Shown here one piece after another: positions 3,215-23,498 of a stretch of 23,498 bases of DNA; the first letter of the stretch is position 1; each line of letters opens with the position of its first letter. This DNA is from a virus (Duplodnaviria > Heunggongvirae > Uroviricota > Caudoviricetes). The notes beneath the pieces were generated by a model. The model did not search any database and had not been told where the DNA came from. It saw only the letters and a program-made list of their open reading frames with translations. Where the stretch lies: IMG/VR virus record IMGVR_UViG_2537561944_000018; one strand, 5' to 3'. The position numbers were made by a program, and so were the translations under genes.

Positions 3215-3291
3215 TGGCGCGTTGTAGTGGAGTCGAACCACTGACCGATTGCTTAGAAGGCAATTGCTCTGTCCGACTGAGCTAACAACGC
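3215..3291 (-). tRNA. tRNA-Arg (anticodon UCU), CCA encoded
   Basis: 77-nt cloverleaf: acceptor GCGTTGT/ACAACGC, D-arm GCTC..GAGC, anticodon stem ATTGC/GCAAT with loop CTTCTAA, T-arm AGTGG-TTCGACT-CCACT. Confidence 0.9.
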
Positions 3292-3304
3292 ATGATGCTG
3301 ATAA

Positions 3305-3381
3305 TGGACCGCCATCGGGGACTTGAACCCCGCGCAGCCAGCTTCGAAGGCTGGCGCTCTGTCCCGATGAGCTAATGGCGG
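3305..3381 (-). tRNA. tRNA-Arg (anticodon UCG), CCA encoded
   Basis: 77-nt cloverleaf: anticodon stem CCAGC/GCTGG with loop CTTCGAA, T-loop TTCAAGT; acceptor pairs CCGCCAT with ATGGCGG (C1-G72). Confidence 0.8.
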
Positions 3382-3390
3382 TATGTGATA

Positions 3391-3466
3391 TGGTGGCCCT
3401 TGCTGGATTTGAACCAGCGACCTGGCGATTATGAGTCGCTCGCTCTCACCACTGAGCTAAAGGGCC
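3391..3466 (-). tRNA. tRNA-Ile2-like (anticodon CAU; Met not excluded), CCA encoded
   Basis: 76-nt cloverleaf GGCCCTT...AAGGGCC with anticodon loop CTCATAA; closely resembles E. coli ileX as recalled; first of a three-tRNA cluster as in Stx-type phages. Confidence 0.85.
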
Positions 3467-15974: not shown

Positions 15975-16100
15975 GTTTCCCTCCGAACTTTACGATGACA
16001 CCGATAATTACAAATTTAAATTTAAATTTCAACTTCTATTTGTAATGCCACTTATCAATTTTTTCTGTAGGATCGCGGAACTAGTTTACGAGGGGTGGTG
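15975..16100. promoter_or_regulatory. Divergent promoter/operator region between the Cro-like and repressor genes
   Basis: Contains AATTACAAATTTAA (16006-16019) and its inverted partner ATTTGTAA (16038-16045) flanking a TTTAAATTTAAATTT repeat; candidate -35/-10 elements on both strands. Confidence 0.5.
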
Positions 16101-16493: not shown

Positions 16494-16539
16494 TGCATTC
16501 CTTTTCTGGAACGAGCATCAGGCAAATGACTAGCAGATT

Positions 16540-16898
16540 TTATAATCCAACCAGGCTTTCCAGGGGGATACCAAATTGATTATGAAGACGGCGAATCATT
16601 GGTAACGTAAGGCTTCTGGTACCATTCAACACCTCATAAACCCGATTTTTTTTCCCAATTGCGGGTTCCAAATCTTTCACAGTCAGCCCCTGCTGTTCCA
16701 TGCGAAATCTTATAGCTTCAATTGGGGATGGTGGCTCAATGGGATAATGTTTTTTTCATATTCCTCTATTAGCAAACACATCACCTCAAAAAAATCCCCC
16801 TCAGGCGTGTCAATTTCGGGCTCATTGTCGAACATGGGTTCAACAGCACGCAACGCGGCTTCATAATCTTGCTCTGTACGAATAGGTTTGATGTTCAT
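16540..16898 (-). pseudogene. higA: HigA-like antitoxin, frameshifted at an A7 tract
   Basis: The N-terminal 62-codon ORF (16898-16710) stops shortly after an A7 run (plus T7 16750-16756); the -1 frame continues through an HTH-XRE domain to TAA 16542-16540. One extra A would give a 120-aa protein. Confidence 0.65.
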
Positions 16899-16900
16899 GC

Positions 16901-17203
16901 TTACTCCAGTTCGATGGTATCAGCATCAATAGCATCGTATTCCTTGTGGTTTCCGATGAATTTAACAAATACCCATCCTCGCTGATACGCAATTGCAACA
17001 ATTAAACGGTAATGATTACCTTTTATGTTGAATACCACGCGCCGGTTTTTCAATATACTGGCCGTTCGGTATTGTGCCTTAATGTCTGCTGGGCTTTTCC
17101 AGTCAGCTTTTGCCGCCTCATCCACCCATGCCCTTAGCGGTTGTTCTGCATCAGGATTCTCCGCCCAAAAATCCCTGAGTGTTTTAACTGAGATAATCTT
17201 CAT
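16901..17203 (-). CDS. higB: HigB-family toxin (RelE/ParE superfamily), 100 aa
   Basis: ATG at 17203; ...VVFNIKGNHYRLIVAIAYQRGWVFVKFIGNHKEYD matches the E. coli HigB motif VFNVGGNELRVV...THKEYD as recalled; toxin-first order, stop 2 nt before the higA ATG. Confidence 0.75.
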   Translation of the reverse strand: MKIISVKTLRDFWAENPDAEQPLRAWVDEAAKADWKSPADIKAQYRTASILKNRRVVFNIKGNHYRLIVAIAYQRGWVFVKFIGNHKEYDAIDADTIELE

Positions 17204-17246
17204 AACTGTATAGTAGTCCCATTTTGGGACTGATGCAACAGCCCGC

Positions 17247-17300
17247 AATTACAAATTTAATAATAAACATGTTGACCAGTTAAATTTTAATTTGTAAATT
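17247..17300. promoter_or_regulatory. Second operator-like site with candidate rightward promoter (PdicB-like) upstream of higB
   Basis: Exact 14-mer AATTACAAATTTAA (17247-17260) plus inverted ATTTGTAA (17290-17297); plus-strand TTGACC (17272-17277), 17-bp spacer, TAAATT (17295-17300). Confidence 0.45.
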
Positions 17301-17616
17301 GTATCCATAAACCCACCCCGCCCCACAGAACGCAGGGCAATACTTCGAGTTACCCGGCAGTGGTCAGGGGTTAAGTAGCCAGCCTGAGGCGTATGAACAT
17401 GACGGCGGGGATTACGTTTAACTATGCAGCAGGTTTTTTGTTCCGCTACCCCGGCGTTAAGGGGAAACAGAGGATTTCTCAGTGGGCGAAGTCAAACATC
17501 AGAATGGAAGGCATCCAGGGATCAGCAAAGAAACAGCGATGGCGCTTTATATTGATATCAGCGCCATTGCCGGACAGGTAAGAATTATCAGAGCGGTAAC
17601 TAAGCGGTATGCGCCT

Positions 17617-17817
17617 TTACTTCAGAAAGTCTCTGGTGAGTGCACCGAAGATATTGTCAACGATTTCGTCATCAAACTGCGAGGACTCATCTTCAGTTAC
17701 AAGGTGACCACAATTTTTGCAGATGGCTCCCGCGAAACTGTCAGAGCCATGCGGTTTAAAGGATGTGTCAAAGACTTCGCCACCACATACTGGGCAAGAA
17801 AACTTGATTGTATTCAT
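17617..17817 (-). CDS. Small zinc-ribbon protein (CxxC-N20-CxxC), 66 aa
   Basis: ATG at 17817 with GAGAGGAA 7 nt upstream; CPVCGG...CKNCGH. It lies antisense to a 118-codon plus-strand ORF (17482-17838), so the call is uncertain. Confidence 0.45.
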   Translation of the reverse strand: MNTIKFSCPVCGGEVFDTSFKPHGSDSFAGAICKNCGHLVTEDESSQFDDEIVDNIFGALTRDFLK

Positions 17818-17909
17818 AACCAATTTCCTCTCGAGTAACAGACCCCTCAGAGGATACCACCTCGCCTGACGTGGTTAAAAGCAGGCAGCGCTAACCACAA
17901 GGAGCCGAC

Positions 17910-18128
17910 ATGCAGAAACGAGAACCCGTCATCATCGCGCCAGACTATACCGATGATGAACTTTATGAGTGGATGCACCAGAAAATTAAGGCAGCGCAGG
18001 ACCTGAAATGGGCCAATGAAGCCAGGGCTAAGCAGGCTGAAAATCTGTCCGCTCTGGAGCAGGATATCACCAATCTGGAAAAAGCAGCGGCATTAAGCAT
18101 TGCCAGAATGATTACATACCCGCGTTAA
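17910..18128 (+). CDS. YdfC-like small protein, 72 aa (assigned by position and length only)
   Basis: ATG at 17910 with AAGGAG 5 nt upstream; sits immediately upstream of dicF as ydfC does in Qin. Confidence 0.65.
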   Translation: MQKREPVIIAPDYTDDELYEWMHQKIKAAQDLKWANEARAKQAENLSALEQDITNLEKAAALSIARMITYPR

Positions 18129-18468
18129 TAGCTAACCAACGAAGCTAAGGTTGGTAATTAAGGAGTTCTCCACGGGTGAGGTGGAGTGCGTGCGCCGGAC
18201 ACGGGTGAGCATCCGGCACTGACAGTTTACTGAAAGGATATTCCCTGAAAAGTCAGACCATAACGCGAAAGCGCACGGCGAGGTAGCTGGTTCATAGATA
18301 GCCTGTCGTTAAATTTTCGTCGACCGTGCGCTTCCGGTTGTGGCAATCCGCGAAATGGCGCGGCGGTAAGTATGGCGGGGTTATTCCTTCCCCAGTTGAG
18401 GACACCGGGTTGTCAGGTTGACCATACGCTTAAGTGACAACCCCGCTGCAACGCCCTCTGTTATCAAT

Positions 18469-18526
18469 TTTCTGGTGACGTTTGGCGGTATCAGTTTTAC
18501 TCCGTGGCTGCTCTGCCGCCCTTTTT
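18469..18526 (+). ncRNA. dicF: DicF small regulatory RNA with its U-tail terminator
   Basis: TTTCTGGTGACGTTTGGCGGTATCAGTTTTACTCCGTGGCTGCTCTGCCGCCC followed by T5; matches the DicF sequence as recalled, with one apparent A-to-G difference; lies just upstream of the dicB homologue. Confidence 0.8.
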
Positions 18527-18695
18527 AAAGTGAATTTTGTGATGCGGTGAATGCGGCTCAGCGCACGCGGAACAGTTAAAACCAAAAACAGTGTTATGGG
18601 TGGATTCTCTGTATCCGGCGTTAATTGTTAACTGGTTAACGTCACCTGGAGGCACCAGGCACCGCATCACAAAATTCATTGTTGAGGACGCGATA

Positions 18696-18884
18696 ATGGA
18701 AACGTTATTACCAAACGTTAATACGTCTGAAGGTTGTTTTGATATTGGTGTTCTGCTCAGTAACCGGGAGTTTACTGAAGATGCCATTAATATGAGGAAA
18801 TATGAGCCTTATCTGCTCAATGATAATTCCATACTTTCCCGAATTGCTCTTCTTGAACTTGGTATTTTCGGAGAACGTCAATGA
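18696..18884 (+). CDS. dicB: DicB-like cell-division inhibitor, 62 aa
   Basis: ATG at 18696 with GAGGA 7 nt upstream; METLLPNVNTSEGCFDIGV... matches the DicB N-terminus as recalled; same 62-aa length. Confidence 0.8.
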   Translation: METLLPNVNTSEGCFDIGVLLSNREFTEDAINMRKYEPYLLNDNSILSRIALLELGIFGERQ

Positions 18885-19069
18885 CTTCAGCATTTGCACT
18901 GATGATGACGGTTTTTCTTATAACGGGTGAATCACAGAATGTGATTACCGGAATTTATGCCAGTAAAGAATCCTGCCTCCAGGCAAGAGACGAGCAAAAA
19001 ATTTCTGGTGAATGCCTCCCGGTAAAAAAAGTATCGCTGTACCTGAATAACGAAACACCGGCTGGATAA
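18881..19069 (+). CDS. YdfD-like small lysis-associated membrane protein, 62 aa
   Basis: ATG overlaps the dicB stop (ATGA); N-terminal hydrophobic helix MTSAFALMMTVFLITG and ...EQKISGECLPVKKV resemble YdfD as recalled. Confidence 0.7.
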   Translation: MTSAFALMMTVFLITGESQNVITGIYASKESCLQARDEQKISGECLPVKKVSLYLNNETPAG

Positions 19070-19163: not shown

Positions 19164-21083
19164 ATGAGTAAAGTCTTTATTTGCGCCGCCATTCCGGACG
19201 AACAGGCAATAAAGGAAGAAGGTGCAGTCGCTGTAGCCACTGCCATTGAAGCCGGTGATGAACGTCGCGCCCGCGCAAAATTTCACTGGCAATTCCTGGA
19301 ACATTATCCGGCTGCTCAGGACTGCGCTTATAAATTTCTTGTTTGCGAGGATAAACCCGGTATTCCCCGCCCTGCCCTCGATTCCTGGGATGCTGAATAT
19401 ATGCAGGAAAACCGCTGGGATGAGGAGTCTGCTTCCTTTGTCCCGGTTGAGACTGAATCAGATCCGATAAACGTCACTTTTGACAAGCTGGCCCCTGAAG
19501 TACAGAACGCTGTCATGGTTAAGTTCGACACATGTGAAAACATCACCGTTGATATGGTGATTAGCGCGCAGGAACTGTTGCAGGAAGACATGGCAACATT
19601 CGACGGACATATCGTTGAAGCGTTGATGAAAATGCCAGAAGTTAACGCCATGTATCCGGAGCTTAAGCTGCATGCCATCGGGTGGGTTAAGCATAAATGT
19701 AAGCCAGGTGCCAAATGGCCCGAAATTCAGGCAGAGATGCGCATCTGGAAAAAACGTCGCGAAGGTGAACGCAAGGAAACCGGAAAATACACGTCTGTTG
19801 TTGATCTCGCCCGCGCCAGAGCCAATCAACAGCACACTGAAAATTCAACAGGAAAAATCAGCCCGGTCATTGCTGCCATTCATCGCGAATACAAGCAGAC
19901 ATGGAAAACACTGGATGACGAACTGGCCTACGCTCTCTGGCCTGGTGATGTGGATGCCGGAAACATTGACGGCAGCATCCATCGCTGGGCAAAAAATGAA
20001 GTTATCGACAACGACCGCGAAGACTGGAAGCGTATCTCGGCATCAATGCGCAAACAGCCTGATGCCCTTCGCTACGACCGCCAGACTATTTTTGGCCTTG
20101 TCCGTGAACGTCCGATCGACATTCACAAAGACCCTGTGGCACTGAACAAATACATTACTGAATACCTGACTACAAAGGGCGTGTTTGAAGATGAAGGAAC
20201 AAATCAGAGCGCAACTGATACTCTCTCGTCGCCAGTACCAGAAACTGATGCAGTGGAAACGGCAATTCCGGACAACGAAAAAACCGAATGCAAAGTGGAA
20301 GTCGAACCATCTGTAGAGCGTGAGGGGCCGTTCTACTTCCTCTTCACCGACAAGGATGGCGAAAAATACGGTCGCGCAAACAAACTTTCTGGTCTGGATA
20401 AGGCACTGGCTGCCGGGGCTACTGAAATCACGAAAGAAGAATATCTTGCCCGCAAAAACGGAACATACACGGACTTACCGCAAAATGTGGATACCGCTGA
20501 AGATTCCGTACAACCGGAGCCGGTAAAAGTTACCGCTGACGAAGTAAACAAAATTATGCAGGCAGCCAATATCAGCCAGCCTGACGCCGATAAATTGCTT
20601 GCTGCATCACGTGGTGAATTTGTTGAAGGGATTAGCGATCCGAATGATCCGAAATGGGTGAAGGGGATTGAAACCTGCGATTCTGTGAACCAGAACCAGC
20701 AAGAATCGGAACAGAACGACCAGAAAACGGAACAAAACAGCCCAAATGCGCAACAAAACGAGCCAGAAACGAAACAGGAGCCGGAAAAAGCCTGCACCGC
20801 CTGCGGTCAGACCGGCGGCGGTAGCTGCCCTGATTGTGGTGCGGTGATAAGTGACGCAACATACCAGGAAATATTCGATGAAGAGAATCAGCCTGAAGTT
20901 CAGGAAAATGATCCGGAGGAAATGGAAGGCACTGCGCATCAGCACAAGGAGAACACTGGCGGCAATCAGCATCATGCCAGCGATAGTGAAACTGGCGAGG
21001 CGTCAGATCCCTTAATTAAGGCGAACGGTCATCATAATCTCACATCACCAGCAGAGCGGGATTCATCTGATGATCGACCTTGA
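19164..21083 (+). CDS. Large YdfE-like protein of unknown function, 639 aa, acidic Q/E/N-rich C-terminus with a Cys4 motif
   Basis: ATG at 19164 with GAGGT upstream; CTACGQTGGGSCPDCG near the C-terminus; occupies the ydfE position after ydfD; no enzymatic motif recognised. Confidence 0.7.
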   Translation: MSKVFICAAIPDEQAIKEEGAVAVATAIEAGDERRARAKFHWQFLEHYPAAQDCAYKFLVCEDKPGIPRPALDSWDAEYMQENRWDEESASFVPVETESDPINVTFDKLAPEVQNAVMVKFDTCENITVDMVISAQELLQEDMATFDGHIVEALMKMPEVNAMYPELKLHAIGWVKHKCKPGAKWPEIQAEMRIWKKRREGERKETGKYTSVVDLARARANQQHTENSTGKISPVIAAIHREYKQTWKTLDDELAYALWPGDVDAGNIDGSIHRWAKNEVIDNDREDWKRISASMRKQPDALRYDRQTIFGLVRERPIDIHKDPVALNKYITEYLTTKGVFEDEGTNQSATDTLSSPVPETDAVETAIPDNEKTECKVEVEPSVEREGPFYFLFTDKDGEKYGRANKLSGLDKALAAGATEITKEEYLARKNGTYTDLPQNVDTAEDSVQPEPVKVTADEVNKIMQAANISQPDADKLLAASRGEFVEGISDPNDPKWVKGIETCDSVNQNQQESEQNDQKTEQNSPNAQQNEPETKQEPEKACTACGQTGGGSCPDCGAVISDATYQEIFDEENQPEVQENDPEEMEGTAHQHKENTGGNQHHASDSETGEASDPLIKANGHHNLTSPAERDSSDDRP

Positions 21084-21612
21084 AACCATGGGAAAAAATC
21101 CTGATGCCCCGATTATCTCAATAGGTGCAATATTTTTCGATCCGCAAACCGGAGAGATGGGGCCAGAATTCAGCAAAACTATCGATCTGGAAACTGCTGG
21201 CGGAGTCATTGATCGGGACACCATTAAGTGGTGGCTGAAACAGTCACGCGAAGCGCAATCCGCCATTCTTACCGATGAAATCCCGTTAGATGATGCACTG
21301 CTGCAATTACGGGAATTTATCGACGAAAACTCCGGTGAATTTTTTGTTCAGGTCTGGGGTAACGGTGCAACTTTCGACAACGTGATTTTACGCCGTTCAT
21401 ATGAACGGCAGGGGATCCCCTGCCCGTGGCGTTACACCAATGATCGCGATGTAAGAACGATGGTTGCTCTGGGACTGGTGATGGATTTCGACGCAAGAAC
21501 GACTATTCCATTCGAAGGTGAACGCCATAACGCTCTGAACGATGCACGTTACCAGGCGAAATACGTTTCAGCCATCTGGCAAAAACTGCTCCCGAGTCAG
21601 GCTGATTTTTGA
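21070..21612 (+). CDS. DEDDh-family (DnaQ-like) 3'-5' exonuclease, 180 aa
   Basis: Exo motifs IDLETMG, WGNGATFD and HNALNDARY; start overlaps the upstream gene by 14 nt. Confidence 0.8.
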   Translation: MIDLETMGKNPDAPIISIGAIFFDPQTGEMGPEFSKTIDLETAGGVIDRDTIKWWLKQSREAQSAILTDEIPLDDALLQLREFIDENSGEFFVQVWGNGATFDNVILRRSYERQGIPCPWRYTNDRDVRTMVALGLVMDFDARTTIPFEGERHNALNDARYQAKYVSAIWQKLLPSQADF

Positions 21613-22316: not shown

Positions 22317-23207
22317 TCAGGCTGCCAGATCATTATTTCCGATGGAAGCATAATAAGCTTTTTCTGCTTCTGCCGGAGGAATATGGCCCAGCCTTTCCAG
22401 CAATCGTCGATTGTTATACCAGTCCACCCACGTTAGTGTGGCCAGTTCCACTTCTGTCCGGTTTTTCCAGCTATTACGGTGTATTACCTCCGCTTTGTAA
22501 AGACCATTGATGCTCTCAGCCATCGCGTTGTCATACGAGTCGCCAGTACTCCCTGTTGATGCCAGTAATCCGGCTTCCTTAAGCCGCTGCGTGTAGGCCA
22601 GCGATACATACTGAGAACCTTTATCACTGTGATGGATTGTGCCGGACGGCCGACGGGCCCACAACGCCTGCTCCAGTGCATCCAGCACGAATGTTGTTTC
22701 CATGGATGATGAGACCTGCCATCCCACGATGTATCCGGCGAACACATCAATGATAAACGCCACATAAACGAAGCCCTGCCATGTGCTGACCCAAGTAAAA
22801 TCAGCCACCCACAACTGGTCTGGACGTTCTGCCACGAACTGACGGTTTACGCGGTCGCATGCGGCAACGGCTTTCCGGCTGACGGTAGTGCGGACCTTTT
22901 TACCCCGGAGAACACCGGCAAGCCCCATAACTGCCATGAGACGTGCCACAGTGCATCTGGCCACTCTGATACCTTCCCGTAACAACTGACGCCAGACTTT
23001 ACGCACACCGTATACCTGGTGATTTTCATCGTATACGCGCTGTATCTCTTTCTTCAGCCAGTCATCGTGCTGCGCACGGGCACTGCGTTTATCCGGATGA
23101 TGTCGCTGTTGCTGACAATGGTAATACGTTGACGGGGCAATATGCAGTTCGCTGCATACCGGTCCGACCCCGTACTGCTCACGCAGCTTATCCAGCAGTG
23201 GCATCAT
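22317..23207 (-). CDS. IS629-like transposase OrfB (DDE), about 296 aa from MMPLL
   Basis: DDE/rve motifs (...HHSDKGSQY...YDNAMAES...); the frame stays open upstream to 23297, overlapping orfA for frameshift fusion. Confidence 0.75.
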
Positions 23208-23498
23208 TTTTCCAGAGGCGGTCGAACTCCGCCTTCGCAAAATAAGCGGAAGCCTGGCGAAGGATATCGTTACTGCGGCGCAGTTCACGATTTTCACGTT
23301 CCAGCTCTTTCAGACGCTGACGTTCAGCACTGGTGAGCCCACCATCACCGCCCCCGGTATCCCGCTCATGCTGGCGAACCCAGACACGCAGAGTCTCCGG
23401 CGTACAGCCAATCTTTGGGGCAATGGAACAAATTGCCGCCCACTGTGAGTCATATTCATCCTGACTTTCCAGAACCATACGAATCGCCCGCTGACGGA
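23188..23498 (-). CDS. IS629-like transposase OrfA, 5'-partial (start lies beyond the window)
   Basis: ...[39 protein letters not shown]...[26 protein letters not shown]; HTH and leucine-zipper region of IS3-family OrfA. Confidence 0.75.

Follow-up and report, generated by a model that had tools for sequence, protein, structure and literature searches.

The window analysed here, a stretch of 23,498 nucleotides, carries what its sequence identifies as a standard, intact copy of the well-studied and already known prophage operon dicF-dicB-ydfD, within what is, on the same grounds, a lambdoid prophage of an O26-like Shiga-toxin-producing Escherichia coli (STEC). We hold it to be highly probable that the region represents the early-left (pL-type) ydfC-dicF-dicB-ydfD segment of such a prophage, homologous to the dicBF operon of the K-12 prophage Qin and working as proposed below, and that the single base by which its small RNA (sRNA) DicF departs from the K-12 version (A39G) is nearly neutral. 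The original prediction of an intact dicF-dicB-ydfD module was a correct identification, based now on profile matches for DicF, DicB and DUF1482 together with synteny; the finding is accurate but ordinary, and carries little weight beyond correct annotation. The features of the region, in window coordinates, are as follows.

17247-17257 (minus strand) and 17289-17299 (plus strand): operator-like half-sites AATTTGTAA(A/T)T flanking the candidate promoter, from a pattern search.
17272-17300, plus strand: candidate pL/dicBp-like promoter TTGACC-17 nt-TAAATT, from a promoter scan and similarity to K-12.
17440-17467, plus strand: 28-nt leader element, 27/28 identical to the K-12 dicBF 5' leader just upstream of ydfA.
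17910-18128, plus strand: ydfC, 72 aa, whose 3' UTR is the source of DicF; 97% identity to K-12 YdfC (tblastn), and annotated as ydfC in near-identical genomes.
18258-18343, plus strand: upstream stem-loop of 23 pairs with an 8-bp repeat as its core, from folding and conservation; probable RNase III site forming the 5' end of the 190-nt precursor.
18464-18472, plus strand: putative RNase E site AUCAA|UUUU, which would set the DicF 5' end at 18469, from published RNase E dependence and a flank nearly invariant in 96 loci.
18469-18521, plus strand: DicF sRNA, 53 nt, from the Rfam match and alignment to K-12; nt 39 (18507) is G, against A in K-12.
18484-18526, plus strand: Rho-independent terminator of DicF, comprising a hairpin of nt 16-52 (18484-18520) and U5 (18522-18526), from folding, the Rfam structure line and a terminator scan.
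18522-18688, plus strand: long stem closing the dicF-dicB spacer, from an inverted repeat and folding; probable RNase III site for the 3' end of 72-nt DicF and release of dicB mRNA.
18696-18884, plus strand: dicB, 62 aa, matching Pfam PF05358 and NCBIfam NF049927; its start is an internal ATG in phase with a longer ORF.
18881-19069, plus strand: ydfD-like gene (DUF1482), 62 aa, matching PF07358; its start overlaps the dicB stop (ATGA).

The identity of the sRNA is established by the Rfam covariance model for DicF, RF00039, which matches the plus strand at 18470-18521 over its full length (model positions 1-52/52) with a score of 75.0 bits (E-value 3.7e-15), well above the gathering score of 48. 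The run TTTTT at 18522-18526 lies directly 3' of this match, and a terminator scan placed a stem and T-run at 18504-18519 within DicF. Both the 53-nt DicF sequence and the T5 read originally from the letters are thus borne out. In addition to the full-length score over threshold, membership of the DicF family is indicated by the presence of the terminator hairpin and U-tract, folding as in K-12; by a coding position between ydfC and dicB that is syntenic with K-12 Qin and with strain O26:H11 11368; and, in silico, by complementarity of the 3' region to the ftsZ ribosome-binding site. The 340-nt leader that had been delimited at 18129-18468 corresponds precisely to the distance from the ydfC stop codon to DicF.

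Annotation of this sRNA is uneven. Under exact matches in RefSeq E. coli genomes, K-12 excepted, dicF is not annotated (feature 'none'), and it is thus systematically missing from the annotation of multi-copy STEC genomes; in the record of Escherichia phage Tritos DicF is annotated. Because RefSeq leaves dicF unannotated, flagging it along with its two RNase III stems is useful annotation housekeeping.

The two protein genes that had been proposed downstream of DicF, encoding a DicB-like and a YdfD-like product, are both intact, with profile matches above cut-offs. The dicB ATG lies at 18696, and the mechanical list of ORFs begins this frame earlier, at an in-frame GTG (18591). Over its full 62 residues the product scores 125.5 bits against PF05358 (cut-off 27) and 114.2 bits against NF049927 (cut-off 100); it is near-identical to K-12 DicB in the N-terminal half, with divergence concentrated in residues 33-62. 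Exactly this protein occurs in 19 of the loci fetched, 11 of them with A and eight with G in DicF, and it is encoded in O26:H11 11368 as well (WP_000449175.1). The YdfD-like protein matches PF07358 (DUF1482) with 56.3 bits (cut-off 25), aligns with K-12 YdfD at 45% identity over its full length, and retains the N-terminal hydrophobic segment MxSAFxLxxTVFLxxGE; the ATGA overlap with dicB is as in K-12. No NCBIfam model matched it in the profile search, and in O26:H11 11368 the gene is annotated 'DUF1482 family protein'. K-12 DicB exerts a MinC-dependent division block and a ManYZ-related exclusion of phage (PMC6832061), and K-12 YdfD causes IspG-dependent lysis (PMC8835842). Comparable activities of the two proteins in the window would be extrapolated from these K-12 homologs, at 63% and 45% identity respectively. 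The description of the locus as a lysis module draws on what was shown for K-12 YdfD.

Evidence for processing of the transcript begins with the inverted repeat GCGCACGG (18271-18278) / CCGTGCGC (18324-18331) in the leader, which had been put forward as a possible processing site and is present as described. Taken by itself, an 8-bp inverted repeat in a 340-nt stretch is near chance level (by our own estimate, roughly one is expected). The repeat extends, however, to 12/13 positions at 18266-18278 / 18324-18336, and the extended hairpin at 18258-18343 (-37.4 kcal/mol, z = -3.56) is beyond chance, because 0/200 shuffles fold equally well. In an alignment of 96 distinct loci sharing DicF, many with unrelated upstream flanks, conservation starts at about window position 18245; the arms of this stem are conserved across loci and the loop they enclose is variable in sequence and length. 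Among the cells of the alignment 97.3% are paired. Ten pairs are invariant and eight change on one side, nearly all cells remaining paired as G-U, and the pair counts over the 96 loci include no two-sided change.

The published record supplies a role for this stem. Ragunathan et al. 2023 (PMC10448788), bearing out Faubladier et al. 1990, found that RNase III is needed for the 5' end of a 190-nt DicF species and RNase E for the 53-nt one, and the same stretch of sequence appears in Fig. S1B of that paper. A species of 190 nt that ends with DicF at 18521 would begin at 18332 (18521-190+1), in the 3' arm of the stem (CCGUGCGCUUCCGG); the cut is placed here by the length of the species, its exact nucleotide being marked only by colour in the published figure. 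By this analogy the leader inverted repeat is very probably the known RNase III site for the 190-nt DicF precursor, a reading that agrees with the possible processing function first ascribed to it.

A second stem, in the spacer between dicF and dicB and absent from the original prediction, is the stronger structure of the two (z = -6.86). It has a perfect 19-bp core, 18531-18549 / 18660-18678, extending to about 28 pairs. Pairing is kept in 99% of its cells across the 96 loci, one pair occurring as CG in 51, UG in 42 and UA in three. A 72-nt form of DicF has a 3' end made by RNase III (reviewed in PMC9438474); this stem carries the corresponding position, 18469+71 = 18540, in its 5' arm and is therefore a probable RNase III site of the 72-nt species. 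Both stems exhibit conservation and wobble-compatible changes, and their support from covariation is modest; a claim of covariation proof for the leader structures was dropped, given the near absence of two-sided compensatory changes in the 96 loci. At the 5' end of mature DicF the sequence AUCAA|UUUUCUGG fits the RN|WUU preference of RNase E. The determinants of processing in the sequence, namely the AA|UUU site and both long stems, are conserved, and their enzymology is known for K-12 alone. In a fold of the long transcript, the RNase E site (A|UUUUC) lies in the 6-nt loop of a small hairpin, UGUUAUCA / UGGUGACG (18464-18489), that comprises the DicF 5' end and its upstream flank and is invariant in the 96 loci.

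Pairwise alignment with dicF of K-12 MG1655 (NC_000913 1649382-1649434) revealed one difference in 53 nt, A39 to G at window 18507, the variant site reading GTGACTGC in K-12 and GTGGCTGC in the window. The A that had been given for K-12 was thus right, and the possibility that K-12 also has G, which would have removed the variant, is contradicted by the MG1655 sequence. Exact matching of a 58-nt query (DicF plus T5) found the G allele in 493/5426 complete E. coli genomes (~9%) and the K-12 (A) allele in 3055 of the 5426. Carriers of G include STEC of serogroups O26, O103, O111, O121, O145 and O157, as well as strains not labelled STEC, such as ML35, and clinical isolates. Genomes with multi-copy dicF have up to 6-7 copies with mixed alleles, and G copies often coexist with A copies, as in strain E2865 (H31, G; H43, A). 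A further comparison of 123 DicF copies, drawn from the window, K-12, O26:H11 11368 and viral contigs of IMG/VR by a pattern scan with N at position 39, comprised 109 A copies and 14 G copies, C and T being absent; a scan of species-representative genomes found the exact DicF pattern in only two records, both of E. coli. The G allele is mostly linked to one DicB class. As judged from these sequences, G at 18507 is a common natural allele, neither rare nor special.

Since the window does contain single-base homopolymer deletions of a kind resembling long-read indel errors (in a T-run at ~18241, and after 21045 and 21057 in the exonuclease gene), an error of sequencing or assembly might be suspected of having created the G. 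DicF differs by a substitution rather than by an indel in a homopolymer; its 58-nt sequence recurs unchanged in the 493 independent complete genomes and in IMG/VR contigs, and the same G stands at the syntenic position of O26:H11 11368. Because the allele recurs in this way we take G to be a real base; an artefact is so improbable that we rejected it, its recurrence refuting it in practice.

We then consider what the substitution would do. Both the Rfam structure line and the ViennaRNA folds join position 39 to U27 of the upper terminator stem, and A39G converts this U-A pair into a U-G wobble. The two alleles share one minimum free energy (MFE) structure, of -15.9 kcal/mol with A and -15.4 kcal/mol with G. 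The ensemble is more heterogeneous with G: the MFE structure has a frequency of 0.24, against 0.45 with A, and nt 27-28 and 41-42 become more often unpaired (probability 0.35-0.5).

Two targets involve the 3' part of the sRNA. Pairing of the DicF 3' region with the ftsZ ribosome-binding site is validated for K-12 (PMC5069750), and the manX site has been footprinted (PMC5861419); we recomputed both duplexes, as exact DicF positions are absent from the text of the papers on the published pairings. In the predicted ftsZ duplex, DicF nt 32-36, 41-43, 45-47 and 49-52 pair with ftsZ -29 to -9; CUCCG (nt 32-36) pairs with CGGAG, and nt 37-40 form a 4-nt internal loop; the local duplex energy is identical for A39 and G39 (-27.9 kcal/mol). 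The footprinted manX site is complementary to DicF nt 38-52, unambiguously so even though residues G145-C162 of the paper are offset by a few nt from our count on the 115-nt UTR; there A39-U becomes G39-U, and the duplex goes from -28.3 to -27.8 kcal/mol (+0.5). On long targets duplex prediction over-extended through large internal loops, so only the local ftsZ and manX results were used, and for xylR and pykA, whose pairing uses the DicF 5' end (PMC5069750), we relied on that statement instead of a recomputed duplex. Target prediction with and without the variant base, as originally proposed, thus left ftsZ unchanged and shifted manX slightly. The idea that the base would matter if it lay in a target-pairing region holds to the extent that nt 39 does pair in the manX duplex, but the change there is only from A-U to G-U, and in the predicted ftsZ duplex the base is unpaired. 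From these models A39G is apparently nearly neutral, the hairpin pair being kept as a wobble and target pairing barely altered.

Set against this is the view that G39 is functionally significant, a pathotype-linked retuning of DicF target choice or RNA stability in STEC prophages, exerted, for instance, by a weaker duplex with manX, by a change in the activation of pchA, a DicF target in enterohaemorrhagic E. coli (EHEC), or by a terminator or Hfq binding that behaves differently. The location of nt 39 within both the manX-complementary stretch and the upper terminator stem would suit it, as would the greater heterogeneity of the G ensemble, the many G carriers among STEC of the six serogroups above, and the linkage of the allele mostly to one DicB class. 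The predicted energy shifts, however, do not exceed 0.5 kcal/mol, against duplex energies of about -28 kcal/mol; ftsZ pairing is unaffected and the hairpin pair persists as a wobble. The only changes seen are pairing-preserving transitions (A/G, never C/T), which fits neutrality under structural constraint, and G is found also in non-STEC (ML35, clinical isolates) and beside A copies in the same cell. We regard such retuning as improbable, and slightly more so the proposal that G39 is a selected variant shifting the regulatory balance of DicF by weaker manX repression or altered pchA activation or RNA turnover. If that were true, cells with mixed A and G copies would express functionally distinct DicF isoforms, and this small chance of a selected regulatory effect of the G allele is the sole novelty left in the finding. 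In its own right, the A/G polymorphism could act as a copy-specific marker for which STEC prophage dicF copy is expressed.

Upstream of the module, the candidate promoter at 17272-17300 has the -35 hexamer and spacing of the K-12 sequence upstream of ydfA (TTGACC-17-TAATCT). The total for the promoter scan was not above that for shuffles, and the assignment draws on this likeness to K-12 and on the operator repeats. A third half-site, AATTTGTAA(A/T)T at 16006-16016 on the minus strand, lies in the cro/repressor intergenic region; the pattern search gave four matches against 0.74 expected, three of which are at the two places expected for lambdoid operators. The 28-nt leader element was located by local blastn of K-12 Qin against the window (Qin sequence 1971-1998 aligned to 17440-17467). 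From these arrangements we infer that transcription of the module is repressor-controlled, and it is assumed that transcription from the candidate promoter proceeds into ydfC. The genes ydfA and ydfB are absent, and a minus-strand zinc-ribbon gene occupies the interval between the candidate promoter and ydfC. This interval has overlapping ORFs on opposite strands: 17482-17838 (plus strand), a 118-aa ORF whose start follows GAGG at a position equivalent to the K-12 ydfA start, and 17617-17823 (minus strand), encoding a 68-aa CxxC...CxxC zinc-ribbon protein assigned by RefSeq to the 'ECs_2282 family'. A toxin-antitoxin pair of the HigB/HigA type (16539-17248, minus strand) lies between the prophage repressor gene and the pL-like promoter, where K-12 Qin has nothing.

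These replacements invite a different view of the locus, that it is what remains of a defective prophage in decay, its sequence still intact but its expression lost once ydfA, ydfB and the original dicBp context gave way to the higBA cassette and a minus-strand gene. In favour of this view, ydfA and ydfB are lacking, and the stretch from the repressor gene to ydfC contains minus-strand genes for HigB, HigA and a zinc-ribbon protein; the truncated exonuclease ORF downstream and an IS3-family element near the end of the window are in keeping with it. Yet the K-12-like promoter (-35 and spacing), the operator repeats and the 28-nt leader are found after higB and before ydfC, neither the RNA-processing structures nor the two small ORFs are damaged, and the same arrangement recurs at 99.8% identity in many STEC genomes. 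We consider decay unlikely, though less so than retuning by G39.

For a functional operon, the near-identity to the K-12 operon, in which processing and target repression were shown experimentally, is the reason for supposing the same here, and the following course of events may be envisaged. An active prophage repressor would keep the operon silent. On derepression a polycistronic RNA would be transcribed from the pL/dicBp-like promoter, probably that at 17272-17300; RNase III would cut the 18258-18343 stem, generating the ~190-nt precursor, RNase E would then cut at AA|UUU to create the 5' end at 18469, and Rho-independent termination at 18521-18526 would form the 3' end of 53-nt DicF. In read-through transcripts, an RNase III cut in the 18531-18549 / 18660-18678 stem would release a ~72-nt form. 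DicF with Hfq would repress ftsZ through its 3' region, and also manX, xylR and pykA. The read-through RNA would be translated into DicB, recruiting MinC to the septum and blocking ManYZ-dependent phage entry, and into the YdfD-like small membrane protein.

Comparison with known systems places this locus among familiar ones. The order ydfC-dicF-dicB-ydfD is that of the K-12 Qin dicBF operon (ydfABC-dicF-dicB-ydfDE); DicF is 52/53 identical, the non-coding stretch between ydfC and dicB is ~98% identical, and both RNase III stems, the RNase E site, the terminator, the dicB/ydfD ATGA overlap and the 28-nt leader element are conserved. The window differs from Qin in (i) lacking ydfA and ydfB, with the higBA cassette and zinc-ribbon gene upstream instead, (ii) its immunity region, the repressor being 22% identical to DicA and the operators different, and (iii) the divergence of the DicB C-terminal half (63% overall identity) and of YdfD (45%), and DicF A39G. 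Multi-copy dicF loci of EHEC/STEC lambdoid prophages (O157:H7, O26:H11 and others) were reportedly the subject of work by Melson and Kendall in 2019 and by Balasubramanian et al. in 2016. With such prophages the window shares 99.8-99.9% identity, and O26:H11 11368 has the same G allele and DicB; it departs from them only in a handful of homopolymer indels and in an IS3-family insertion not present in most relatives. The window as a whole is 99.9% identical to one STEC chromosome over its full length, and 95% of it matches many genomes of O26 type. Gene order in O26:H11 11368 proceeds from the cro-like gene and repressor, through HigA, HigB and the zinc-ribbon gene on the opposite strand, to ydfC, dicB and the DUF1482 gene, and then to exonuclease and integrase. 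The module also shares its position with the Kil/cell-division-inhibitor region of the pL operon in lambdoid phages (P22 immC-like), downstream of the repressor-controlled leftward early promoter and upstream of exo/recombination genes and integrase; as inhibitors, though, it has an sRNA and the MinC-dependent DicB instead of lambda Kil. By sequence, the locus is essentially the same as those in K-12, O157:H7 and deposited Stx-converting and other lambdoid phages.

Several observations concern the remainder of the window. In the RecE-like exonuclease (20900-21300 region) the two 1-nt homopolymer deletions relative to O26:H11 11368, after 21045 and 21057, shorten the ORF to 639 aa (19164-21083) from the 816 aa of that strain, and the T-run of the dicF leader at ~18241 is one base shorter than in nearly all of the 95 other loci. 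The homopolymer deletions could be long-read assembly errors or real pseudogenisation. Near the end of the window an ALIL pseudoknot, the frameshift signal of IS3-family transposases, matches at 23133-23248 on the minus strand (115.7 bits); ~1.26 kb of the window has no counterpart in most close relatives, and an IS600-family transposase is listed for the best match, which suggests a strain-specific IS insertion there. At the opposite end, on the minus strand at 2273-2445 and 3215-3466, are an Rfam match to the sRNA STnc100 (104.7 bits) and three phage tRNA genes, Arg-tct, Arg-tcg and Met-cat (the last perhaps of Ile2 type), a layout typical of the late region of Stx-type lambdoid phages.
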